NCBI GenBank assembly: GCA_964631135.1
Contig: CAZVVZ010000001.1
Location: 1-50,066, forward strand
Source: an uncultured Eubacteriales bacterium
GTDB lineage: Bacteria; Bacillota; Clostridia; TANB77; RGIG9151
DNA length: 50,066 nt
Direction: 5' to 3'
The translations under genes were made by a program, and so were the position numbers. Position 1 is the stretch's first letter. Each line of letters opens with the position of its first letter. This document shows, one piece after another, positions 1 to 46,990 of the stretch. Under the pieces are notes generated by a model that was given only the letters and a program-made list of their open reading frames with translations, had not been told where the DNA came from and made no database searches.

Positions 1-11
1 TTTACATTGAT

Positions 12-170
12 ATTAGTTACCAGTCAGACTATATGAAAAAAAGATATATGTTTTATCGGAACTCAGGATTTGCTACGAAAGACTTTAAAAAATACGGGAA
101 GTCTTTCGGCAAATATTCGTTCCTTTTAAAACATATATCTTTTTTTCATATAGTCTGACTGGTAACTAAT
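12..170 (+). repeat. T1 long-hairpin (foldback) repeat, copy A, forward orientation (CTCAGG arm first)
   Basis: Near-perfect 159-bp foldback: attagttaccagtcagactatatgaaaaaaagatatatgtttta ... taaaacatatatctttttttcatatagtctgactggtaactaat. It encloses the conserved T1 core cggaactcaggatttgc..gaaagactt-loop-aagtctttcggcaaatattcgttcc. Confidence 0.9.
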
Positions 171-192
171 ATTTTGTCGTGAATCGACATGA
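167..192 (+). repeat. M3 module, 3' hairpin part only (taatattttgtcgtgaatcgacatga)
   Basis: 26-nt match (24/26) to 46964-46989. The two differences convert a T/T mismatch into a C:G pair in the small hairpin tgtcg(t)gaa(t)cgaca. Confidence 0.6.
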
Positions 193-3859: not shown

Positions 3860-3895
3860 AACGGTGAACTTTGTAAGGCCACTAAAAAAGCCTTC

Positions 3896-4036
3896 GCAAA
3901 TAAAAAATAGCACAGATGTCATATAGTTTAACGTTGCTCAGAATTCACGGCGGAAACCCTTATCATATGCTATAGGGTGGTTTTCTGTGAATATTCGCAT
4001 CTTTTTAAACTATATGACATCTGTGTTATTTTTTGC
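3896..4036 (+). repeat. T2 long-hairpin repeat, copy 1 (forward); weaker palindromic flanks extend to about 3866-4063
   Basis: atagcacagatgtcatatagtttaacgttgctcagaattcacggcggaaaccc ... gggtggttttctgtgaatattcgcatctttttaaactatatgacatctgtgttat. It is about 90% identical to the reverse complement of 20763-20887. It lies between convergent genes. Confidence 0.85.
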
Positions 4037-4063
4037 AAAAACTTTTTCAACTGCTTCACAAAG

Positions 4064-5109: not shown

Positions 5110-5300
5110 GTTACTAGTCGGGCTATTAGTGTTTAAACTGTTACTATATGTAAATAAAATATATGTTTTAAAAGGAACGAATATTTGCAGAAAGACTTCC
5201 TCTAATTTTTTTGAAGTCTTTCGTCGCAAATCCTGAGTTCCGATAAAACATATATTTTATTTACATATAGTAACAGTTTAAACACTAACAGTCAGACTAC
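5110..5300 (-). repeat. T1 long-hairpin repeat, copy B, reverse orientation
   Basis: Perfect inverted repeat 5127-5287 (tagtgtttaaactgttactatatgtaaataaaatatatgtttta / reverse complement) around the T1 core in reverse orientation. Degenerate outer termini are gttactagtcgggct (left) and cagtcagactac (right). Confidence 0.9.
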
Positions 5301-9347: not shown

Positions 9348-9596
9348 TTTTTAATGTAATAGAAAATTTCTACAAAAAAGCGAATAAAACGAGCAATAAA
9401 ATGGGTTATAAAAAGCTCTCCTAAATAGACGTTCAGATTGCTGTAAAAAAGTACTATATATGTTTTATCAGAACTCAGGATTTGCGACGGAAGACTTTAA
9501 AAAAATATGGGAAGTCTTTCGGCAAATATTCGTTCCTTTTAAAACATATATAGTACTTTTTTACAGCTACCAAAAAAGATACCTTAATATTTTGAC
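9348..9596 (+). repeat. M3 repeated module, copy X, interrupted by T1 copy C
   Basis: The 5' part tttttaatgtaatagaaaatttctacaaaaaagcga...gagcaataaaa and the 3' part taccaaaaaagataccttaatattttg match 18548-18621 and 46881-46972. Confidence 0.6.
9440..9567 (+). repeat. T1 long-hairpin repeat, copy C, forward
   Basis: gctgtaaaaaagtactatatatgttttatcagaactcaggatttgcgacggaagactt ... aagtctttcggcaaatattcgttccttttaaaacatatatagtacttttttacagc. This is a 128-bp foldback with copy-specific outer arms. Confidence 0.9.
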
Positions 9597-9619
9597 GTGG
9601 ACAAAGTCCACATTTTTTT
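9597..9619 (+). terminator. Rho-independent terminator candidate
   Basis: gtggac-aaa-gtccac followed by attttttt, downstream of the ABC permease and upstream of the marR promoter. Confidence 0.55.
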
Positions 9620-9625
9620 AACCCA

Positions 9626-12921: not shown

Positions 12922-13869
12922 ATGGTAAAAACTAAAATTTGTGAATTATTAGACATTGAATATCCGATTTTTCAAGGAGGAATGGCATGGATTGCTGATG
13001 CGGATTTAGCTGCTGCAGTGTCAAATGCCGGCGGACTTGGAATAATATCTGCAATGAATGCTAATGCAGAATGGCTAAAAAGTCAGATTGATAAAGCAAG
13101 ATCATTAACTGATAAGCCATTTGGTGTAAATATTATGCTTATGAGTCCATTTGCTGATGAAGTTGCACAATTAGTCGCAGATGAAAAGATAAAGGTTGTT
13201 ACGACGGGTGCAGGTGATCCTTCAAAATATATGGACATGTGGAATAAAGCAGGAGTAAAAGTTATTCCGGTTGTTGCATCTGTTGCTCTTGCAAAACTTG
13301 CTGAGAGAAACGGTGCGGTTGCTGTTATTGCCGAAGGAGGAGAATCAGGTGGACATATTGGCGAACTTTCCACTATGACATTAGTTCCTCAAGTAAAGGA
13401 TGCAGTTACTATTCCTGTAATTGCAGCCGGCGGAATTGGAGACGGAAGAGGTGTTGCGGCAGCATTTATGCTGGGAGCAGAAGGAGTACAGCTTGGTACA
13501 AGGTTTTTGGTTGCGACAGAATGCAATGTTCACCCAAATTATAAGAAAAAAATAATTGCAGCAAAAGATAGAGATACAATTACAACAGGAAAGCGACTAG
13601 GCCATCCTGTACGTTCTCTTAAAAACCCATATTCAAGAGAATTCTTTAAGAAAGAATATGATACAACTATTTCTAATGAAGAATTGGAGCTGTTTGGCAG
13701 AGGGTCTTTAAGAAGAGCGGCAGTAGACGGAGATGAAAAAACAGGATGCTTTTTAGCAGGTCAGATTGCTGCCATGGTTAAAAAAGAACAACCTGCAAAA
13801 GAAATAATTGAAGAAATATTCAGTGAAGCAGATGAAATACTGGGTGGTGCAGGCAAATGGGTAAAATAG
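12922..13869 (+). CDS. fabK: Enoyl-ACP reductase II (FMN-dependent, nitronate monooxygenase fold)
   Basis: 315 aa with IFQGGMAWI, GGESGGHIG and IAAGGIGDGRG. It lies between fabH and fabD. Confidence 0.85.
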   Translation: MVKTKICELLDIEYPIFQGGMAWIADADLAAAVSNAGGLGIISAMNANAEWLKSQIDKARSLTDKPFGVNIMLMSPFADEVAQLVADEKIKVVTTGAGDPSKYMDMWNKAGVKVIPVVASVALAKLAERNGAVAVIAEGGESGGHIGELSTMTLVPQVKDAVTIPVIAAGGIGDGRGVAAAFMLGAEGVQLGTRFLVATECNVHPNYKKKIIAAKDRDTITTGKRLGHPVRSLKNPYSREFFKKEYDTTISNEELELFGRGSLRRAAVDGDEKTGCFLAGQIAAMVKKEQPAKEIIEEIFSEADEILGGAGKWVK

Positions 13870-18650: not shown

Positions 18651-19514
18651 ATGTTAAATAAATTACTTTTTAAGAAGCCGAAGAATAAATTGGAAACATA
18701 CGGAAAGTTGGCTAAGATTGCTAATCCTGATGTGCCTGAAGATATGTGCATTGTGTGTCCTTCCTGCCAGCAACAGGTTTTTTCCAGTGATGTGACGGAT
18801 AATTTAAATGTTTGTCCTAATTGCAGACATCATTTTAGAATAAATGCAAGGCAGAGGTTGAATATTATTTGTGATACTGACTCTTTTATTGAGCATGATA
18901 AAGACATGATAACCGATAAAGGGCTAGATTTTCCGGGATATAACAAAAAATTAAATCAGGCCCAACTTGAGAGTGCGGAAAAAGAAGCTGTTATATGCGG
19001 TGAGGCGACCATTAGTAATATAAAATGTGCAATTTTTGTTATGGATCCATATTTTATGATGGGGAGTATGGGAACTGTAGTGGGTGAAAAAATCACAAGA
19101 CTGTTTGAGTATGCGACTGAAAATAGTTTGCCGGTTATCGGATATACTGTTTCCGGAGGAGCTAGAATGCAAGAAGGAATTTTATCATTGATGCAAATGG
19201 CTAAAGTTTCCGGTGCTGTAAAAAAACATAGTGATTCAGGTAATTTATATATTACAGTATTAACAGATCCTACGACAGGTGGGGTTACTGCAAGCTTTGC
19301 TATGGAGGGAGATATTATTTTATCTGAGCCTCAAGCTTTAATTGGCTTTGCAGGGCCTAGAGTTATCGAGCAGACTATAAGACAGAAATTGCCTGTCGGC
19401 TTTCAAAGAGCAGAGTTCCTGCTTAATAAAGGATTTGTTGACTTGATTGTGGAAAGAAAAAAGCAAAAAGAACTTCTTTCTAAACTATTATATATGCATA
19501 GAAAGGAGAAATAA
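18651..19514 (+). CDS. accD: Acetyl-CoA carboxylase carboxyltransferase beta subunit
   Basis: Zinc-ribbon CPSCQQ...CPNCRHH at the N-terminus, then the carboxyltransferase domain (GGARMQEG). Confidence 0.9.
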
Positions 19515-19516
19515 CA

Positions 19517-20284
19517 ATGACAGCATATGAAAAGGTTTGCATGGCAAGAGCTAAAGGCCGTCCTACATCTATGAGCTATATAAAAAATATTTTTGATGAT
19601 TTTATTGAGATGCATGGAGATAGAAGATTTGGCGATGATAAAGCAATTGTCGCAGGAATAGCGACGTTAAATAATAAGCCGGTGACTGTTATAGGAATTG
19701 AAAAAGGTGAAAATACAAAAGAGAGAATAGAAAGAAATTTTGGTTCTTCTCATCCGGAAGGCTATAGAAAAGCTTTAAGGCAAATGAAACTTGCAGAAAA
19801 ATTTAACAGACCGATTATTTGCTTTGTAGATACTTCGGGGGCTTATTGTGGCATTGAGGCTGAAGAACGTGGTCAAGGGCAGGCTATTGCGGAAAATTTA
19901 ATGGAGATGATGACATTAAAAGTTCCTATTATTTCTGTATTTGTTGGTGAAGGCGGAAGCGGAGGAGCGCTTGCTTTAGCTGTTGCGGATGAAGTTTGGA
20001 TGCTTGAAAATTCCGTTTATTCCGTTATTTCTCCGGAAGGCTGTGCCAGCATACTGTGGAAAGATTCTGCGAAAGTAAAAGAAGCTTCCGAATGCTTAAA
20101 ACTAACTTCAGATGATTTGCTCGCTAATAAAGTTGTTGAGAAAAAAATAAATGAAAATTCCGGTAAGTTTGAAGAAGTATATAACATTTTAAAGGATAAT
20201 ATGGTAGATACTTTAGAAAAACTGGAAAGCTTAAGCAAAGAAGAACTGATTGATAACAGATATAAGAGATTTAGAAAGTTTTAG
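19517..20284 (+). CDS. accA: Acetyl-CoA carboxylase carboxyltransferase alpha subunit
   Basis: 255 aa with [26 protein letters not shown] and [10 protein letters not shown]. Confidence 0.9.
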
Positions 20285-20294
20285 GAGGTTAAGT

Positions 20295-20708
20295 ATGAAT
20301 AAAGATGAATTGAAAAAAATTTTACCGCATAGAGAGCCGATGCTACTTGTTGAAGAAGCAGAAAAAATTGATGAAAATAAAGCTATTGGGAAATATAAGG
20401 TAAAAGGTGACGAATGGTTTTTGCAAGGGCATTTCCCGGGAAATCCTGTTGTGCCGGGAGTTGTGCTTTGCGAGATGATGGCACAGGCTTGCTGTGTGAT
20501 ACTTGCAGATAAAGTAAGCGGTGCAACACCGTATTTTACAGGACTTAATAATGTTAAATTTAAAAATAAGGTCTTGCCGGGGGATGAGCTAATTACTGAA
20601 TGTGAGATTACTAAATCTAAACACCCTTTTTACTTTGCCACAGCTAAAGGGAGTGTCAATGGAAAACTTTCGGTTTGTGCGGATTTTTCATTTGCATTGA
20701 TAAAATAA
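20295..20708 (+). CDS. fabZ: 3-hydroxyacyl-ACP dehydratase
   Basis: The start is taken at MNKDEL, 5 nt after aggagg. It carries the hot-dog motif HFPGNPVVPGV. The stop codon lies inside the 12-bp direct repeat flanking T2 copy 2. Confidence 0.9.
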   Translation: MNKDELKKILPHREPMLLVEEAEKIDENKAIGKYKVKGDEWFLQGHFPGNPVVPGVVLCEMMAQACCVILADKVSGATPYFTGLNNVKFKNKVLPGDELITECEITKSKHPFYFATAKGSVNGKLSVCADFSFALIK

Positions 20709-20713
20709 AGTCT

Positions 20714-20936
20714 CTATTCAGGGAAAAAGGGGTTGAAAAAAACTCTTCCCTAAATAATAAAACATAGCACAGAGCTCATATAGTTTAAAAGATGCGAATA
20801 TTCACAGGAAACCATCCTATAGCATAGGATAAGAGGTTTCCGTCGTGAATCCTGAGCAACGTTAAACTATATGAGCTCTGTGCTATGTTTTATTATTTAG
20901 GGAAGAGTTTTTTTCAACCCCTTTTTCCCTGAATAG
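20714..20936 (-). repeat. T2 long-hairpin repeat, copy 2 (reverse), a 223-bp foldback flanked by a 12-bp direct repeat; possible MITE insertion
   Basis: ctattcagggaaaaaggggttgaaaaaaactcttccctaaataataaaacatagcacagagctcatatagtttaa ... and its reverse complement form the arms. gataaaataaag occurs at 20699-20710 and again at 20938-20949. Confidence 0.85.
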
Positions 20937-20962
20937 GGATAAAATAAAGATTTAGTTTATAT

Positions 20963-22849: not shown

Positions 22850-22911
22850 AATATAAACACCTCTGTTATTTTTTTATACTTAGAAATTCAAAAATATATT
22901 GAATAATAAAC

Positions 22912-23068
22912 GTTATTCTTCAGGCTTATATATGAAAATAATATATATGTTTTACCGGAACTCAGGATTTACAACGAAAGACTTTAAAAAATATAGGAAG
23001 TCTTTCTGCAAATATTCGTTCCTTTTAAAACATATATATTGTTTTCATGTAATAGTCTGAATAGTAAC
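22912..23068 (+). repeat. T1 long-hairpin repeat, copy D, forward (more degenerate arms)
   Basis: gttattcttcaggcttatatatgaaaataatatatatgttttaccggaactcaggatttacaacgaaagactt ... aagtctttctgcaaatattcgttccttttaaaacatatatattgttttcatgtaatagtctgaatagtaac. Confidence 0.85.
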
Positions 23069-23161
23069 TTATAAACATAAAAACTTCAGCTTTTACATTT
23101 ACTCTTTAATCATAAATATGATACAATATTGGTGCAAAGTTGTAAAGGAGATGAATAAGAT

Positions 23162-29571: not shown

Positions 29572-29630
29572 GTTACCGTGGGAACTAATAAAATAAATAA
29601 TTTATTAGTTTCCGCGGTAACTATTTTTTT
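29572..29630 (+). terminator. Rho-independent terminator with an unusually long 21-bp stem
   Basis: gttaccgtgggaactaataaa-loop-tttattagtttccgcggtaac followed by tattttttt. Both arm mismatches are G:U on the + strand (they would be C/A on the - strand), so the structure is an RNA-level one on +. Confidence 0.7.
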
Positions 29631-31092: not shown

Positions 31093-31402
31093 AAAGGAAT
31101 ATCAGTTAATTATTACGATTGTAGATCAGGGAAAAGCAGAAGACGTTATCGAGTGTGCGAAAAAAGGCGGTGCTGAGGGCGGAACAATCCTAACAGGCAG
31201 AGGTGCCGGCACAAAGGATACAGCGAAAGTTTTAGGAATTTTAATAGAACCGGAAAAAGAGGTAATTTTTACTCTTATTGAAAAAGAAAAAACAGATAGT
31301 GTTTTAGAAGCAATTTCTACAGGTATGGAGTTGGCAAAGCCGGGTAAGGGCATAGCATTTGTGATTGATGTTCCTAAGGCTATTGGAATTGCTTGCGAAT
31401 AG
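31079..31402 (+). CDS. P-II-like signal-transduction protein
   Basis: The start is taken at MWKNKKEY, 9 nt after aaagggagga. It is 107 aa with a beta-alpha-beta pattern and a GRGAGTKD T-loop-like segment. It overlaps the upstream stop by 14 nt. Confidence 0.55.
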   Translation: MWKNKKEYQLIITIVDQGKAEDVIECAKKGGAEGGTILTGRGAGTKDTAKVLGILIEPEKEVIFTLIEKEKTDSVLEAISTGMELAKPGKGIAFVIDVPKAIGIACE

Positions 31403-31419
31403 ATAATTTCTTACAATAT

Positions 31420-32538
31420 TTATTTACAGTAATATAATGTTTGAAATATTTTAAAAATAACAGTAAATACAAATAGCCCTAAAATTACGGAAAGTACTGC
31501 ATTAAAACCATATGAATTGTATTCTGCTCCTGAAAATACAGGTGTTAATAAAATTTCCGAAAAGTTTGTATAAAGTAAGGCAAGATATGTTAAAGCTCCT
31601 GCGATAATACCTTGAAGGGTTTTACCGATTAGATAGGAGCTTATTTTTATATCTGTTTTTGCAAGTACACTTAAAGTTTGAGTATGAATACTAAAGCCTC
31701 CGAAGCCAAGGACAACAGCAGTTATCACAAGTTTTTTCATCAATGGGATAGATGCGGTGGATAATAAATTTACCCCGTTTGTAACTTCAAGTATTCCTGT
31801 AAATATTGCTAAAGATACACTTCTATCTAAATTTGGAAAAATAAGTTTAGAAATTGCAGATATAATACCTGTTTCTAAAAAAATAGTTGAAATTATTGAA
31901 AAAAGTACTATAAATCCACCTATAGCCACTACACTTGATATTGAATTTTTAACAGATTCATTTAATACATTGCCTAATTTTGAAAAAGTAATTACTTCAA
32001 ATTCTATATCATTGCTTTTTAAAGAGGGCTCTTTTGATTTTTTAAGAAGAATCCCGACAACTAATGCAGAAAGATAGTGAGTGATTAGAAGGAGTGTCCC
32101 GATTTTTGGATTGTTGTATAATCCTATGCCTATAGCACCACTTATAAAAAGAGGACCGGCATTATTTGTAAATGCGATTAAATGATTTGCTGAGGTAGAT
32201 GAGATGGTATTATTTTTCCTTAAATCAGCTGTAACTTTCGCTCCTACCGGATATCCGCCTACCATTCCTAGAAAAACTGCAAGAGCAGATATTCCCGGCA
32301 GTTTAAATACAAATTGCATAATAGGATTTAATAGTTTTCCAAAAAACTTTGGAAGTGCGGTTTTTATTATTAGATTAGATAATATTAAAAAAGGGAGTAA
32401 AGAGGGCAACACTATTCTCCACCAAAGAGATATCCCATTTTTTGCAGAAGAAATCATTGATTCGGGGAAAATAATACAAAATAAGACAAGTACTGAAATA
32501 AAAATTGTAAATATGTATTTTTTCATATTTAATATCAT
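31420..32538 (-). CDS. ylbJ: Nucleoside-recognition (Gate) domain membrane protein, YlbJ-like sporulation integral membrane protein
   Basis: 372 aa and polytopic, with WWRIVLPSLLPFLILSNL near the N-terminus. An alternative start lies 4 codons downstream (MKKY). Confidence 0.55.
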   Translation of the reverse strand: MILNMKKYIFTIFISVLVLFCIIFPESMISSAKNGISLWWRIVLPSLLPFLILSNLIIKTALPKFFGKLLNPIMQFVFKLPGISALAVFLGMVGGYPVGAKVTADLRKNNTISSTSANHLIAFTNNAGPLFISGAIGIGLYNNPKIGTLLLITHYLSALVVGILLKKSKEPSLKSNDIEFEVITFSKLGNVLNESVKNSISSVVAIGGFIVLFSIISTIFLETGIISAISKLIFPNLDRSVSLAIFTGILEVTNGVNLLSTASIPLMKKLVITAVVLGFGGFSIHTQTLSVLAKTDIKISSYLIGKTLQGIIAGALTYLALLYTNFSEILLTPVFSGAEYNSYGFNAVLSVILGLFVFTVIFKIFQTLYYCK

Positions 32539-32572
32539 TCCTTTCTACAAACATTCGTTCAAACATATATAC

Positions 32573-32585
32573 TCTGACCAGTAAC
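32573..32585 (-). repeat. Solo T1 terminus fragment next to copy E
   Basis: tctgaccagtaac resembles the right terminus tctgactggtaac of copy A (11/13). It lies 12 nt outside the left end of copy E. Confidence 0.35.
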
Positions 32586-32597
32586 CGAAGATGACAC

Positions 32598-32750
32598 TGT
32601 TCAGACTGCGACTATATGAAAATAATATATATGTTTTAAAAGGAACGAATATTTGCCGAAAGACTTCCCGTATTTTTTAAAGTCTTTCGTCGCAAATCCT
32701 GAGTTCCGATAAAACATATATATTATTTTCATATAGCAGCAGTCTGAACA
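32598..32750 (-). repeat. T1 long-hairpin repeat, copy E, reverse
   Basis: tgttcagactgcgactatatgaaaataatatatatgttttaaaaggaacgaatatttgccgaaagactt ... aagtctttcgtcgcaaatcctgagttccgataaaacatatatattattttcatatagcagcagtctgaaca. Confidence 0.9.
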
Positions 32751-36161: not shown

Positions 36162-36304
36162 GTTGCTATTCAGACTACTAAATAATATATATGTTTTATC
36201 GGAACTCAGGATTTGCGACGAAAGACTTTAAAAAATACGAGAAGTTTTTCGGCAAATATTCGTTCCTTTTAAAACATATATATTATTTTCATATAATAGT
36301 AGCA
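36162..36304 (+). repeat. T1 long-hairpin repeat, copy F, forward, with eroded termini
   Basis: gttgctattcagactactaaataatatatatgttttatcggaactcaggatttgcgacgaaagactt ... aagtttttcggcaaatattcgttccttttaaaacatatatattattttcatataatagtagca. It is bracketed by cattcga at 36155-36161 and 36305-36311. Confidence 0.85.
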
Positions 36305-40402: not shown

Positions 40403-40617
40403 ATACTGTGAACGGATAGAGTATCCAAACTCGAATTCCGGAAAGCATAATAATCAAGGAAGATTTCAGTGTTCACGGACGAATACTTATGAAAAGAGAC
40501 CTAAAAATAAAGGGTTTATTCTCTTTGTTTTTAAGTATCTCAATTTCCGGAATTCTGAGCGAGATGCAGTATCTGTTTTTTGTTTTAAAAAAATTAAAAC
40601 AGAAAGGAGGGAGAGTG

Positions 40618-41763
40618 ATGCGAATCAATACAAATGTAATGGCCTTAAATGCACAAAATATGCTGTCTAAGAACCAAAATGATGTGGAAAAATCAATTCA
40701 GAAATTATCTTCAGGTCTTAAGATAAACGGAGCTTCAGACGATGCTTCAGGACTTGCGATAAGTGAAAAGATGAGAGCACAGATAAAAGGATTGAATCAA
40801 GCTCAATCCAATGCACAAGACGGCATATCGTTATTACAAACTGCAGAAGGTGCTTTACAGCAATCTACCGATATTCTTCAAAGGATGCGAGAGCTTGTTA
40901 TTAAGGCGCAAAACACAGGCGTATTGACGGATGAAGACAGAACGTCTATTAGTAACGAACTTAGTACACTTCGTGATGAAATTGACAGAATTTCAACATC
41001 TACAACATTCAACGGCAAGAAACTTTTAACCGGTGACATGGGAACAAAAGTGGCTACTAATAGCCTCACTAATGCAGTAGCAGTAGATGCTTCAAATGCA
41101 AAAGAGGGGATAGAGTATACATTTTCCTATGACTCTACTAAGGAAAAAATAAAAGTTTCTTGGACAGATGACGGTGTAGCAAAAACTGATTATTCAGACA
41201 AGACATATGTTTCTGATACAGATACGGTGTCAGGTCAAGTTAATTTTTCAGGAGCAGGAATAAGTATCGATTACGGTGAGACGGGTGTTACAGTAACAAA
41301 TGCTATTGCCGGTACTAAAGTAGCAACGGCAGATGTAGCAAGTGGGCAAAGAGCGGAATTTAAGATTGGCGCTAATACTTATACACAAGACGTAATGTTT
41401 GTTGGTATAAGTGACATGAGTTCGAAGGGACTAAATAAAACAGATAAAACTGAAAAATTCTCTATCGATATCAGTACAGCACAAAAAGCGAATGAAGCTT
41501 TAAGTGCAATAGATTATGCACTAAATAAAGTTTCAGAGCAAAGATCAAGCTTAGGTACCGTTCAAAACAGGATGGAATATTCCAGTAATAATCTATCCAC
41601 AACGGAAGAAAATTTAACAGCTGCCGAGTCAAGAATCAGGGATGTTGACATGGCAGAAGAAATGGTAACATACACCAAAAACAGTATTCTAAATGAGTCT
41701 GCTATGGCGATGTTATCTCAGGCAAATAAACAGCCTGAAAAAATTCTTACTTTATTACAGTAA
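40618..41763 (+). CDS. fliC: Flagellin paralog 1
   Basis: The start is taken at MRINTNVMALNAQN, 7 nt after aaaggaggg. It has conserved D0/D1 N- and C-termini (…SRIRDVDMAEEMV.YTK.SIL…LLQ) and a divergent centre. Confidence 0.92.
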   Translation: MRINTNVMALNAQNMLSKNQNDVEKSIQKLSSGLKINGASDDASGLAISEKMRAQIKGLNQAQSNAQDGISLLQTAEGALQQSTDILQRMRELVIKAQNTGVLTDEDRTSISNELSTLRDEIDRISTSTTFNGKKLLTGDMGTKVATNSLTNAVAVDASNAKEGIEYTFSYDSTKEKIKVSWTDDGVAKTDYSDKTYVSDTDTVSGQVNFSGAGISIDYGETGVTVTNAIAGTKVATADVASGQRAEFKIGANTYTQDVMFVGISDMSSKGLNKTDKTEKFSIDISTAQKANEALSAIDYALNKVSEQRSSLGTVQNRMEYSSNNLSTTEENLTAAESRIRDVDMAEEMVTYTKNSILNESAMAMLSQANKQPEKILTLLQ

Positions 41764-41836
41764 GAGTAGACTTAAGTTAATATGTAATGAAAGTCACGGA
41801 TGAAAAAAATAATTAAAATTCAGGGAGGAATTTATT

Positions 41837-42979
41837 ATGAGAATTAATACTAATGTTATGGCGTTAAACGCACAAAACAAATTAACAAAAAACCAATCAA
41901 GTGTAGAAAAGTCAATCCAAAGATTGTCTTCAGGTTTAAGAATCAACAGTGCAGCTGATGATGCTGCAGGACTTGCAATCAGTGAAAAAATGCGTGCACA
42001 AATCAGAGGTCTTGGTCAAGCTCAAGACAATGCACAGGACGGTATTTCCTTAATTCAAACAGCAGAGGGTGCTTTACAACAAACAACAGACATTCTTCAG
42101 AGAATGAGAGAGCTTGTTATTAAAGCCCAAAACACAGGTGTATTAACAGATAACGATAGAACATCTATCTCAAGCGAGTTAAGTACACTACGTGATGAAA
42201 TTGACAGAATTGCTACTTCTACAACATTTAACAGTAAAAAACTATTAAATGGTGAATTAGGAAATGAAATGGAATCTGCTAATATTGGCTCATATGCAAG
42301 AATAGATGTAGCTAATGCTGATTCAAGCACGGAATATACGATTGCAAATACTGTAGATTCAAACGGAAGATTACAAATGACATGGACTGATGAAGCAGGT
42401 AGTACACATACAGCAGTGTCAGATATATCTTTTGGTAGTGGTGCAACTGCTGTTGCAGGAAGGGTTAACTTTGCTGATGCAGGAATAATTGTAGATTTCG
42501 GCGACGATGATGTAGCATTAGCAAGTGCAGCCGGAACAATTACAACATCTGCTGCTCAGAAAAGAGCAGACTTTAAGATTGGTGCAAACACATATGAAGA
42601 AGACGTTTTATCGTGCGGCATTAGTGATATGTCCTCAACTGGATTAAACAGAGATATGAAAGCTAATGAAAAGTTCGGAATAGACATAAGCACAGCTGAT
42701 TTAGCTAATGAAACATTAGATAATTTGGACTATGCTTTAGAGACAGTTGCATCACAGAGATCCACTCTTGGTGTTATGCAGAACAGAATGGAATATGCGG
42801 TAAGCAACTTATCTACAACCGAAGAAAACTTAACATCTGCTGAATCTCGTATCCGTGACGTAGATATGGCTGAAGAAATGGTAAGCTATACAAAGGATAG
42901 CATATTAAATCAATCTGCTATGGCGATGTTAGCACAAGCAAATCAACAGCCACAAGCGATCCTTTCATTACTTCAATAA
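41837..42979 (+). CDS. fliC: Flagellin paralog 2
   Basis: 380 aa, MRINTNVMALNAQNKL..., with SD cagggagga. Confidence 0.93.
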   Translation: MRINTNVMALNAQNKLTKNQSSVEKSIQRLSSGLRINSAADDAAGLAISEKMRAQIRGLGQAQDNAQDGISLIQTAEGALQQTTDILQRMRELVIKAQNTGVLTDNDRTSISSELSTLRDEIDRIATSTTFNSKKLLNGELGNEMESANIGSYARIDVANADSSTEYTIANTVDSNGRLQMTWTDEAGSTHTAVSDISFGSGATAVAGRVNFADAGIIVDFGDDDVALASAAGTITTSAAQKRADFKIGANTYEEDVLSCGISDMSSTGLNRDMKANEKFGIDISTADLANETLDNLDYALETVASQRSTLGVMQNRMEYAVSNLSTTEENLTSAESRIRDVDMAEEMVSYTKDSILNQSAMAMLAQANQQPQAILSLLQ

Positions 42980-42999
42980 CGGAGAAGTAATGTTCTCCG
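42980..42999 (+). terminator. Weak hairpin after flagellin 2 (cggagaa-gtaatg-ttctccg), no clean U-tract
   Basis: A 7-bp stem directly after the stop codon. The downstream sequence gaattgaagttttt has only a distal T-run. Confidence 0.3.
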
Positions 43000-43050
43000 G
43001 AATTGAAGTTTTTCAAGGATGAGAAATTTCAAATTCAAGGAGGAATTATT

Positions 43051-44169
43051 ATGAGAATTAATACAAACGTAATGGCATTAAATGCCCAAAATAAGTTATC
43101 AGCAAATGAAAGTAGTGTAGAAAAATCAATTCAAAGATTATCTTCAGGTTTAAGAATTAACAGTGCAGCAGACGATGCATCAGGCTTAGCAATAAGTGAA
43201 AAGATGCGTGCTCAGATCAGAGGCTTAGATCAAGCCCAATCTAATGCACAAGACGGTATATCGTTATTACAAACAGCTGAAGGTGCTTTACAACAAACAA
43301 CAGACATTCTTCAAAGAATGAGAGAGCTTGTTATTAAAGCTCAGAACACAGGTGTGTTAACAGACAACGATAGAACATCTATCTCAAACGAACTTAGCAC
43401 ACTACAGGATGAAATCGACAGAATTGCTACATCTACTACATTTAACGGAAAGAAATTGTTAGATGGCAGTATGTCAACAAAGCTTGATGCTGGCTCAACC
43501 ATTACTGGGCTTAAAAATGTTGATGTTGCATCTGCTGATGCAGGAAAAACATTTACCTTAGCAGCAACTTTTGACAACAATAGATTAAAAATAACTGATG
43601 AAGATGGTAATGTATCATATTCAGATGTAACATTTACAAATACAAAATCTATTAGCGGTAAAGTAACATTTGCAGATATCGGAGTTTCTATAGACTTTGG
43701 TGATGAAGATGTTGAACTTGCAACAAAGACAATAAAAACAGCAGCAGTTACAAACAGAGCTGACTTCAAGATTGGTGCTAATACATTTGATGAGGACGTT
43801 TTATCAGCCGGTATCGGAGATATGTCCGCTGTAGGACTAAATAGAAATATGGGTACTGAAAAATTCTCAATTGATATTAGTAGTGCTACAACAGCAAATG
43901 ATACGTTAGATGCGATTGACTATGCACTTGATAAAGTATCTGCTCAAAGATCTAATCTTGGTGTTATCCAAAACAGAATGGAATATGCAGTAAGCAACTT
44001 ATCTACAACCGAAGAAAACTTAACAGCTGCTGAATCTCGTATCAGAGATGTAGATATGGCTGAAGAGATGGTATCTTATACAAAGAACTCTATCTTAAAT
44101 CAATCTGCTATGTCAATGTTAGCTCAGGCAAATCAACAACCACAAACAATCTTGTCATTACTACAATAG
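43051..44169 (+). CDS. fliC: Flagellin paralog 3
   Basis: The start is taken at MRINTNVMALNAQNKLSANE after caaggagga. Conserved termini, unique central region. Confidence 0.93.
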   Translation: MRINTNVMALNAQNKLSANESSVEKSIQRLSSGLRINSAADDASGLAISEKMRAQIRGLDQAQSNAQDGISLLQTAEGALQQTTDILQRMRELVIKAQNTGVLTDNDRTSISNELSTLQDEIDRIATSTTFNGKKLLDGSMSTKLDAGSTITGLKNVDVASADAGKTFTLAATFDNNRLKITDEDGNVSYSDVTFTNTKSISGKVTFADIGVSIDFGDEDVELATKTIKTAAVTNRADFKIGANTFDEDVLSAGIGDMSAVGLNRNMGTEKFSIDISSATTANDTLDAIDYALDKVSAQRSNLGVIQNRMEYAVSNLSTTEENLTAAESRIRDVDMAEEMVSYTKNSILNQSAMSMLAQANQQPQTILSLLQ

Positions 44170-44300
44170 AAAAGGATAAGTGGTCTTTAATATAAAAATA
44201 ATTGGCACTGAATATTAAAGACAATATCTAAGATACATATAAATTTAAGTGTGTTCTTAAATTATACGGCGAAAAAAATAAGAAAATACAAAAAATAAGT

Positions 44301-44327
44301 TAAGTAAATAATTGGTTTAGACGATAC
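44301..44327 (+). promoter_or_regulatory. Candidate sigma-D promoter for flagellin 4: TAAG-N17-CGATAC
   Basis: taag at 44301 and cgatac at 44322, about 95 nt upstream of the ATG. Confidence 0.4.
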
Positions 44328-44420
44328 TCTAAACAGCCGAGAGACTCTTTGCACTGGCAAGGAGTTTTTGGCGTTGACACAAGGAAGATGTCAATACAAA
44401 GAATTCAAGGAGGAATTTAT

Positions 44421-45560
44421 ATGAGAATCAACACTAACCTAATGGCGCTTAATGCGCAGAACAAATTGCGAGTAAATCAGTCAAACGTAGAAAAATCAAT
44501 CCAGAAGTTATCTTCAGGAATGAGAATCAACAGTGCTGCTGATGATGCTGCGGGATTAGCGATTAGTGAGAAGATGCGTGCTCAAATCCGAGGTCTAAAG
44601 CAAGCTCAGGATAATGCGCAAGATGGTATCTCATTAATCCAAACCGCAGAAGGTGCATTGCAGCAAACGACTGACATTTTACAAAGAATGAGGGAGCTTG
44701 TAATAAAGGCGCAAAACACCGGTGTATTGACAGACAACGATAGAACATCTATTACGAGTGAGCTTAGTACACTACGTGATGAAATTGATAGAATAGCGAC
44801 TTCAACGACCTTTAACTCAAAGAAATTGTTAGATGGTGAACTTGCAGTTCAAAGGGCAGAAAATGGTGGCACATTTGATGCCGGTATAGTGGATGTTGTA
44901 AATGCGAATACAGGTACAACGTATACGATAACTGCTAAAGAAGGAGAACGTGCATACGTTAGTTTTACTGATCCGGAAACCGGTAATACGATAAGTTATG
45001 TATCCGATATAGTGATGACAAAAACAGTTACCGGAAAAATAAACTTTTCTGATGCGGGAATTATAGTTAATTTCTGGAGAAATGAAGTATCACTGGAAAG
45101 TCTGAACGGTAAAACGATAGTAACAGCTGATGATTCCTTCGGTATTAAGGCAGATTTTAAGATTGGAGCCAACACATATTCCGAAGACATTTTAGCAATA
45201 GGAATAGGCGATATGTCATCGATAGGACTGAATGTTAAAAATGATGGGGCAAAATTTTCAATAGATATTTCTACTGCGAGCTCTGCCAACGATGTCCTAG
45301 ATGCTGTTGATTTCGCCTTGGATGCGGTAGCTTCTCAGAGAGGAACACTTGGAGCTATACAAAATCGAATGGAATATGCGATAAGTAATTTAAGTGCTAC
45401 CGAAGAAAACTTGAGTGCAGCCGAATCACGTATCCGTGATGTCGACATGTCTGCAGAGATGGTTAAGTACACAAAGAATAACATACTAAATCAATCTGCT
45501 ATGGCGATGTTGGCACAGGCAAATCAACAGCCTCAACAAGTCTTGACTTTATTACAATAA
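44421..45560 (+). CDS. fliC: Flagellin paralog 4 (visibly more G/C-ending codons in the conserved N-terminal part)
   Basis: The start is taken at MRINTNLMALNAQNKL after caaggagga. Conserved termini. Confidence 0.93.
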   Translation: MRINTNLMALNAQNKLRVNQSNVEKSIQKLSSGMRINSAADDAAGLAISEKMRAQIRGLKQAQDNAQDGISLIQTAEGALQQTTDILQRMRELVIKAQNTGVLTDNDRTSITSELSTLRDEIDRIATSTTFNSKKLLDGELAVQRAENGGTFDAGIVDVVNANTGTTYTITAKEGERAYVSFTDPETGNTISYVSDIVMTKTVTGKINFSDAGIIVNFWRNEVSLESLNGKTIVTADDSFGIKADFKIGANTYSEDILAIGIGDMSSIGLNVKNDGAKFSIDISTASSANDVLDAVDFALDAVASQRGTLGAIQNRMEYAISNLSATEENLSAAESRIRDVDMSAEMVKYTKNNILNQSAMAMLAQANQQPQQVLTLLQ

Positions 45561-46683: not shown

Positions 46684-46710
46684 AAGAGTACGTTAAACAA
46701 AATATAAAAA

Positions 46711-46880
46711 ATTGGTTACTAGTCAGACTGCTGCTATGCGAAAATAATATATATGTTTTATCGGAACTCAGGATTTGCGACGAAAGGCTTTAAAAATACT
46801 GGAAGCCTTTCGGCAAATATTCGTTCCTTTTAAAACATATATATTATTTTCGCATAGTAGCAGTCTGACTAGTAACCAAT
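46711..46880 (+). repeat. T1 long-hairpin repeat, copy G, forward (near-perfect 170-bp foldback)
   Basis: attggttactagtcagactgctgctatgcgaaaataatatatatgttttatcggaactcaggatttgcgacgaaaggctt ... aagcctttcggcaaatattcgttccttttaaaacatatatattattttcgcatagtagcagtctgactagtaaccaat. Confidence 0.9.
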
Positions 46881-46990
46881 TTTTATGTAATAGGAAATTC
46901 CTTAAAAAACAAAGGGGCTTTTCACAGAGGTTGCTGAAAAAGTCCCTTATTTCTATAATACCTTAATATTTTGTCGCGAAGCGACATGAA
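46881..46990 (+). repeat. M3 repeated module, copy Z (contiguous), abutting T1 copy G and the rpoD stop codon
   Basis: It contains ttttatgtaataggaaattcct, ctgaaaaag and ataccttaatattttgtcgcgaagcgacatga. These blocks are shared with 9348-9596, 18548-18621 and 167-192. Confidence 0.6.

Follow-up and report, generated by a model that had tools for sequence, protein, structure and literature searches.

The 50,066-nt stretch of DNA of an uncultured Clostridia bacterium analysed here, from here on called the window, carries a previously undescribed family of repeats, consisting of T1, T2 and their relatives, which our Rfam, plasmid, phage and literature searches set apart and which is mobile now. 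Its members are hairpin-forming elements of 130-260 bases, located in the gaps between genes, with variable ends and a conserved centre, a pattern that makes the centre a likely cis-acting recognition module. Our preferred reading, to which we would give a probability of about 0.45, is that the core, a double bubble set in co-varying helices, serves as such a module on a folded single strand.

The layout of the family is best described from T1 copy A (10..172, + strand), a 163-nt palindrome with perfect 46-nt arms and a core at 50-132. Read from the outside inwards, the central, asymmetric core of the family (~95 nt) consists of a helix (ATATATGTTTTA/TAAAACATATAT in T1), a TC/TTT loop (TC at 56-57 opposite TTT at 124-126 in copy A), a 5-bp helix, the bubble TCAGG/ATTC (63-67 opposite 115-118), a 6-bp helix, a 2-nt bulge (TA, 74-75) and an apical hairpin (76-108). 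Outside the core lie arms of 14 to more than 80 nt, which are near-perfectly complementary within a copy and different between copies. When folded as RNA, copy A forms a single hairpin of -90.4 kcal/mol (z = -18.4), and when folded as DNA it gives z = -18.8 for the top strand and -19.9 for the bottom strand. The preliminary description had read the T1 hairpin at 58-123 as GGAAC (58-62), TCAGG (63-67) and ATTTGC (68-73) on one arm and GCAAAT (109-114), ATTC (115-118) and GTTCC (119-123) on the other, which is exact to the base, and its T2 reading, GC-TCAGR-ATTCAC / GTGAAT-ATTC-GC, is likewise correct. The copy number was also as claimed, with seven T1 and two T2 copies in the window, all nine having TCAGR opposite ATTC, and the G:U and A:C examples given for copies C, D and F were accurate. 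Two of its statements were too narrow: the bubble is indeed kept but is not the sole conserved island, since the second internal loop (TC/TTT in T1) and the stretch AATATTC-N4-CTTTTAA are equally invariant; and the description of the bubble as always 5x4 holds for T1 and T2 but not for T3, where it is 6x4, nor for T1b, where a C:A closing mismatch effectively enlarges it.

The motif CTCAGRATT occurs 12 times in the window against an expectation of 0.81, a count reached by none of 100 shuffles; nine of the 12 matches are the nine elements, all of them intergenic, and the remaining three (10160, 33645 and 40551) are unrelated. This corresponds to a density of about one repeat per 5.5 kb. Besides copy A, the T1 elements are copy B (5115..5299, -), which lies between divergent genes and has 56-nt arms of 95% complementarity; copy C (9440..9567, +), with GCTGTAAAAAAG-type arms and an A:C mismatch in helix 1 (CAGAAC); copy D (22907..23073, +), an older copy whose arm complementarity is 81% and which has an A:C mismatch in helix 2 (ATTTAC); copy E (32598..32750, -); copy F (36174..36300, +), the left arm of which is shortened; and copy G (46707..46884, +), which lies between convergent genes and has 54-nt arms of 98% complementarity. 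T2 copy 1 (3885..4047, +) is also located between convergent genes and has the sequence GC-TCAGA-ATTCAC ... GTGAAT-ATTC-GC; its arms, at 3902-3931 and 4005-4034, pair well. T2 copy 2 (20711..20939, -) contains a palindrome of 223 nt at 20714-20936, and its 78-nt arms are 99% complementary.

The window has several other features. A degenerate T1 right half at about 32545-32597 (CATTCGTTC-AAACATATAT...CTGACCAGTAAC) adjoins copy E, which suggests nested or repeated insertion at one spot. Copies A and C share extra similarity to the right of the palindrome (TAATATTTTGNCGTGRA..., at 173-215 and 9568-9620); in copy C a small GC hairpin and its T-run come next (9597-9611), and T1 may also exist in a longer, composite form. 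At 29572-29621 there is an unrelated inverted repeat of 24 nt (GTTACCGTGGGAACTAATAAAATA / TAATTTATTAGTTTCCGCGGTAAC, separated by 2 nt), which is followed by a T-run and is probably an ordinary terminator or operator. At 40489-45560 the window has four tandem flagellin genes, with a product of 403 aa as compared with 379 aa in L194 and L195 (L numbers denote the related loci), and this difference in gene length between strains marks the flagellin locus as variable.

To see how far the core is conserved, we compared 24 sequences, all distinct and falling into five subfamilies; their sources were the window species, one metagenome-assembled genome (MAG) and three related metagenomic lineages. In this set TCAG was found in 24 of 24 and ATTC in 24 of 24, the fifth base being G in 22 and A in 2, with the qualification that the covariance model behind the census contains the bubble and therefore favours intact copies. 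Among all the loci examined, there was one T2 copy with GTTC in place of ATTC, and a degenerate T1 (L192:19016-19137) in which the 5' side of the bubble is gone. The blocks ATAT, TTTA, CTCAG, ATT, AATATTC and CTTTTAA are invariant and common to T1 and T2, the positions between them differ, and some of the conserved blocks lie within paired regions (ATAT, TTTA/TAAA, ATT/AAT). Helix 1 occurs as GGAAC/GTTCC, GGGAC/GTCCC, GGGGC/ACTCC or GC/GC and helix 2 as ATTTGC/GCAAAT, ATTCAC/GTGAAT or ATTTTC/GAAAAT; thus T1b reads GGGGC-TCAGG-ATTTGC / GCAAAT-ATTC-ACTCC and T3 reads GGGAC-TCAGGG-ATTTTC / GAAAAT-ATTC-GTCCC. The apical hairpins of T1, T2 and T3 are unrelated to one another. The bubble is kept in two further forms, a T1-like form with another apex in L180 and a T2 with an 87-nt insert in L183.

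Across the 24 sequences, 97.8% of the cells of the structural alignment pair, and 25 of the 40 base pairs have changed on both sides; none of 500 shuffles was as good, and slid controls came nowhere near. The helices adjoining the bubble have such double changes (AU:12/GC:12, UA:13/CG:11 and AU:11/GC:10). These observations support the conclusion that the bubble is under purifying selection while the adjacent helices co-vary. They also bear out much of what the preliminary description had proposed: the 5-bp and 6-bp helices flanking the bubble carry compensatory changes across subfamilies, the bubble does not vary freely in a larger census (TCAG and ATTC in 24 of 24), and neither of T1 and T2 derives recently from the other, the same bubble being kept also in T1b, T3, the T1-like form and the T2 with the 87-nt insert. 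Its further reading of the bubble as a specific recognition site is upheld insofar as a folded single strand with a specific site is favoured over random palindrome decay, but the covariation of the outer arms, on which that reading also drew, has a cheaper explanation at the DNA level. The same 87-nt insert is present in three T2 copies (L183:17583-17792, ~540-760 and ~19510-19740), located in each right after the ATTCAC of helix 2. Its hairpins are AAAGGTTCTAGCTAATTAC...GTAATTAGAGAACCTTT and GGACGTGTCACTGCGTG...CACGCAGTGTTACGTCC, and it has the look of a small element of its own, in the style of IS200/IS605, a hitch-hiker that then spread with T2.

The present mobility of the family is seen most clearly downstream of rmuC, where strains 99.5-99.9% identical to the window have three alleles of T2 copy 2. 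In the empty allele (L188, L189) the sequence ...CTTTATTTTATC|AACGC... contains a single copy of a 12-mer, and in the window allele a 229-nt element sits between two copies of it, as a direct duplication of 12 bp (GATAAAATAAAG, left at 20699..20710 and right at 20938..20949, both +). In the third allele, that of L187, the arms and flanks are as in the window, but the asymmetric core, a 73-nt segment between the 78-nt arms, is reverse-complemented. Since the non-palindromic end bases (C ... AGA) keep the same orientation in L187, the core must have been inverted in situ, with no second insertion. T2 copy 2 is a young insertion. A second polymorphic element, a T1 located beyond the right end of the window (L194:7592-7714), is a 161-nt insert in L194 and L196 and is absent from L195; it is flanked by AAAAAATA (8 bp), possibly in part element sequence. 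The two clear flanking repeats thus differ in length, 12 and 8 bp, and older copies have only weak flanking repeats of 6-7 nt. The sites of copies D, E and F are empty in L135, which has two other copies elsewhere, and the site of copy E is also empty in L136 and L138. Loss of the centre is seen as well: in strain L121 the 111-nt core of copy F has been deleted between ATAATA repeats, with the outer arms kept.

Core-less remnants, in which outer T1 or T2b arms are joined or a solo arm is left, were observed at L133:130-200, L133:2877-2948, L126:2313-2358 and L121:~13330-13345, and similar ones in the MAG, which suggests that these palindromes often lose their centres by deletion. The gap downstream of rmuC holds different elements in three lineages (L180:11162-11309, L183:11170-11294 and window 20711-20939), which differ in position and orientation and consist of a T2, a one-armed T2 and a T1-like form, and it may be that gene 3' ends of this kind are insertion hot spots. 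Another gap, between the convergent P-II and Gate genes, spans 17 nt in the window (31402-31420) and has no hairpin, the Gate protein ending in …YYCK*; in the relatives (L135:8761-8781 and L183:~505-530) the arms of an element encode the last residues and the stop of the Gate-domain gene (…SRKIKNQI* and …SPSDKRSK*).

At T2 copy 2 the inserted unit is the whole palindrome, including the 78-nt arms, so that the arms were not borrowed from the target, and the similarity of T2b arms across loci and genomes (92-96%) indicates that arms are inherited. Conservation rises toward the centre, the outermost arm sequences differ between copies and subfamilies, and no terminal motif common to the copies was found. 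Between the window and L187 the arms differ by four substitutions, one of them a paired change of G-C to A-T. The inversion of the core implies that the two arms exchange with each other, and this exchange, together with the paired change, means that arm complementarity can be kept at the level of DNA and is by itself no proof of a functional fold. It follows that only the short helices within the invertible core, 5-6 bp long and with compensatory changes only, give clean evidence of selection on pairing. Two other origins for the hairpins were considered and rejected. Insertion of the core into the loops of pre-existing terminators is countered by the empty allele of T2 copy 2, which is without a palindrome and shows the whole 229-nt unit to be the insert, and also by the P-II/Gate gap, which has no hairpin in the window where relatives carry elements. 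An 'onion' type of growth, with arms copied from local flanks, is not in keeping with the outer arms, which match no non-element flank in ~300 kb.

The family is confined to a narrow clade, and all its subfamilies are clearly homologous. In a scan of genomes, a single MAG (CAZXFU01, an uncultured Eubacteriales bacterium) had real copies, six of T2 and one of T1, at loci with no synteny to the window, and three other matches of that scan were due to chance. Orthologous contigs were gathered through homologues of RelA and RmuC with 78-100% identity to the window proteins, the nearest named relatives being Acetivibrio, at ~61% RelA identity. A covariance model built from 19 copies found matches in the window species, in L135 (RelA 92%), in L180 (RmuC 88%) and in L183 (GCA_964316295.1, RmuC 85%), and none in L136, L138 or L185; the two copies in L135 were found independently of the bubble, by inverted-repeat scanning and BLAST. 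The loose pattern CTCAGRATT-N-AATATTCG gave 120 matches in viral contigs, all of them chance and lacking stem complementarity, and the signature CTCAGR-N(38-60)-AATATTC-N4-CTTTTAAA gave 39 matches in metagenome contigs and one in a viral contig, again all chance; since the latter scan missed a JGI contig known to carry T3, absence from it says little. Rfam 15 had no match anywhere in the window at gathering score, and at relaxed thresholds returned only generic long-hairpin models of miRNA precursors, with scores well short of the gathering thresholds. Nothing matched in plasmid and phage collections, and a literature search found no description of the family. Six short-read contigs of this species, of 1.1-3.4 kb (L123, L124, L189, L190, L191 and L193) end inside or at elements. 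Such repeats fragment assemblies systematically, and copy counts in MAGs are therefore underestimates. As for a partner, no transposase is found in the 50-kb window, which fits a non-autonomous element, and the gene tables of ~300 kb of related sequence hold no Y1/HUH gene. A 368-aa ORF between two inverted T2 copies (L183:18244-19350) was considered for this role and set aside, since it lacks Pfam and NCBIfam matches as well as any homologue in the other related loci.

Taken together, it can be hypothesized that T1, T2 and their relatives are small non-autonomous mobile elements of the foldback type, each a single long hairpin, for whose spread the central asymmetric core of ~95 nt, and not the termini, would be needed. 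This core has two loops, TCAGR/ATTC and one of the TC/TTT type with the invariant CTTTTAA, separated by a helix of 4-5 bp whose sequence is free as long as pairing is kept, with a further 6-bp helix and a 2-nt bulge under the variable apex. A trans-acting factor would recognise the module on the folded TCAGR...ATTC strand, which may be DNA that becomes single-stranded during replication or else an RNA copy, and the whole hairpin would be moved as a unit, with the end of pairing, and not a terminal sequence, fixing its boundaries. We infer the bubble to be the site of binding or cleavage, and infer likewise the strand, the nucleic acid and the enzyme involved. Given that single copies degenerate, are stripped of their cores, and are gained and lost between near-identical strains while the core stays invariant, its conservation seems to come from selection for transposition competence and not from selection at each locus. 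The choice of strand is suggested by the isolated mismatches in otherwise perfect helices: all are transitions, and on the TCAGR strand G:T outnumbers A:C by 11 to 2, an asymmetry (one-sided binomial ~0.01) that is weak in that its 13 mismatches come from related copies; over all paired cells the numbers are 17 and 8. These mismatches suggest that it is the TCAGR...ATTC strand that folds and is active, although such an asymmetry does not separate RNA from single-stranded DNA. Counting against the recognition-module reading are the core inversion, since the orientation of the core is not fixed at its locus, the placement of most T2 copies between convergent genes, which a role as RNA explains equally well, and the failure to find a partner enzyme in the window and the related loci. 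There is also a mechanistic puzzle. We know of no target duplication in the known single-strand hairpin systems (IS200/IS605, integron attC, REP/RAYT), and DDE transposases need conserved ends, so that no known mechanism fits both the hairpin logic and the duplications of 12 and 8 bp. A bolder version of the recognition-module reading, which we consider unlikely, would place the family in a class of transposable elements of its own, new in that structure and not end sequences would define the mobile unit, the factor recognising the double-bubble core of an extruded single-strand hairpin and cutting at the hairpin base, where pairing ends, with insertion into A/T-rich DNA by staggered cuts that vary in length. 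If the unit were defined in this way, the arms would be free to drift, grow or shrink while the centre stayed fixed.

The main rival, which we hold to be on the unlikely side, is that the core works as RNA, the elements being mobile bidirectional terminators or hairpins at mRNA 3' ends. The asymmetric loop would then be recognised or cut by a double-strand-specific RNase or an RNA-binding protein, on the model of the RNase III sites of phage T7, in which a loop of this kind is also present. The placement of the elements fits such a role: six of the first eight T2 copies are located between convergent genes, directly after both stop codons, the T2 arms have A-runs on one side and T-runs on the other, so that a long stem is followed by T6-8 in both directions, and in tandem gene contexts about seven copies are in the sense orientation and one is antisense. 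In addition, mismatches of the G:U type are tolerated on one strand, the RNA folds of both strands are equally good, and on the bottom strand GAAU/CCUGA could form tandem sheared G-A pairs. A canonical k-turn on that strand (CCUGA/GAAU) was set aside, the loop being 5x4 and not 5x2. The sense bias and the convergent placement are also in keeping with an insertion bias relative to replication, and the RNA role meets several difficulties. The core flips between strains at one locus with nothing else changed, and copies are lost, decayed or absent in near-identical strains; T1 copies are found upstream of promoters in divergent regions, where a terminator would serve no purpose; a simple terminator scan does not call the elements, the loop being too long; with stems of 45-130 bp and a conserved core of 95 nt, the elements go far beyond what termination needs; and there is no match in Rfam.

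The two remaining explanations do without a functional fold. In one, the bubble never forms, and its two halves are double-stranded DNA sites for a transposase, nucleoid protein or invertase, the symmetry around them being kept up by conversion from arm to arm. That the arms interact is real enough, as seen from the core inversion and the paired G-C to A-T change within the species, and some of the conserved blocks do lie inside paired regions; but conversion needs longer stretches than the helices of 5 and 6 bp that flank the bubble inside the invertible core, and these nevertheless have compensatory changes only, conversion would erase the asymmetry unless selection kept it, and promoter-like matches in the elements are at background level. 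We therefore regard this as quite improbable. In the other, the bubble has no function and is common to all copies through a recent single ancestor, its unpaired bases having lacked the time to change. The homology of the subfamilies and their narrow clade would agree with this, but only about 29% of the other columns are invariant, as against all nine bubble positions except R in 24 sequences (0.29^9, ~1e-5), the paired positions beside the bubble have turned over completely, the apices of T1, T2 and T3 are unrelated, and neutral unpaired positions should change faster than paired ones, not slower. Common descent alone thus seems highly improbable to us. It is the covariation, and the contrast of invariant unpaired with variable paired bases, that disfavours both of these explanations.

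Comparison with known systems leaves the family without an exact counterpart. Like REP/REPIN sequences, which depend on RAYT, a Y1 HUH protein, the elements are short, very abundant, intergenic, non-autonomous hairpin repeats with compensatory stem changes, a long hairpin is the unit of replication in both, and recognition of a single strand has been proposed for those repeats too; but REPINs have conserved ends (REP 25-mers with GTAG), a variable middle and no target duplication, whereas here the centre is conserved (CTCAG, AATATTC, CTTTTAA), the ends vary without a conserved GTAG, and repeats of 12 and 8 bp stand beside the young copies. ERIC/IRU, Correia (CREE) and RUP MITEs are similar in being imperfect intergenic palindromes of 100-200 bp that are present or absent between strains and form RNA hairpins, and some of them serve as RNase targets or terminators; they, too, interrupt short-read assemblies. 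Classical MITEs, in contrast, have conserved terminal inverted repeats that match those of a parent IS, and their target duplication has a fixed length, while here the termini are not conserved, the two duplications are of unequal length, and the arms are specific to a copy or subfamily. In shape the likeness to integron attC sites is striking, with their helix, unpaired spacer, second helix with extrahelical bases and variable apex, and with IntI acting selectively on the folded bottom strand; but in attC the bubble is conserved in shape and not in sequence, RYYYAAC/GTTRRRY boxes are present, cassettes are arrayed by intI, and there is no duplication, whereas helix 1 here has no conserved AAC/GTT box (GGAAC/GTTCC, GC/GC, GGGAC/GTCCC) and the copies lie among housekeeping genes (relA, rmuC, fab, rpoD and the like). 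The ends of IS200/IS605 elements and PATEs share strand-specific recognition of irregular hairpins and the existence of non-autonomous derivatives, but there the subterminal hairpins come as a directly oriented pair, insertion takes place 3' of a fixed tetra- or pentanucleotide, and no duplication arises, as opposed to the single hairpin, 12-bp duplication and differing targets found here.

Parvovirus hairpins form the ends of a linear viral genome copied by rolling-hairpin synthesis, occur in flip and flop forms and, at the left end of MVM, have a mismatched bubble. By analogy, an asymmetric bubble such as ours could give polarity to a nicking protein, and the centre of our elements likewise occurs in two inverted configurations; but ours are internal chromosomal repeats, and their inversion is explained more simply by exchange between the 78-nt inverted arms. 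An inverton, too, has a segment inverted between inverted repeats, together with a promoter and a dedicated invertase; here the 73-nt core is inverted between the 78-nt arms from one strain to another, and no convincing promoter was found in it.

Small hairpin repeats such as REP, ERIC, Correia and other MITEs shape bacterial genomes, and to our knowledge the machinery reads the ends of the element in every well-understood case among them. The family described here has free ends and a fixed centre with co-varying adjacent helices, is active in present-day populations, and has a core that flips. Its practical effects include the fragmentation of short-read assemblies of this lineage, the rewriting of the C-termini of neighbouring genes and the supply of terminator-like hairpins between convergent genes. 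If the bubble is indeed the recognition site, the family would offer a tractable entry point, with a 9-base motif, natural mutants, and both empty and filled alleles in public metagenomes, and it might open the way to a system of structure-specific mobilisation among uncultured Clostridia.
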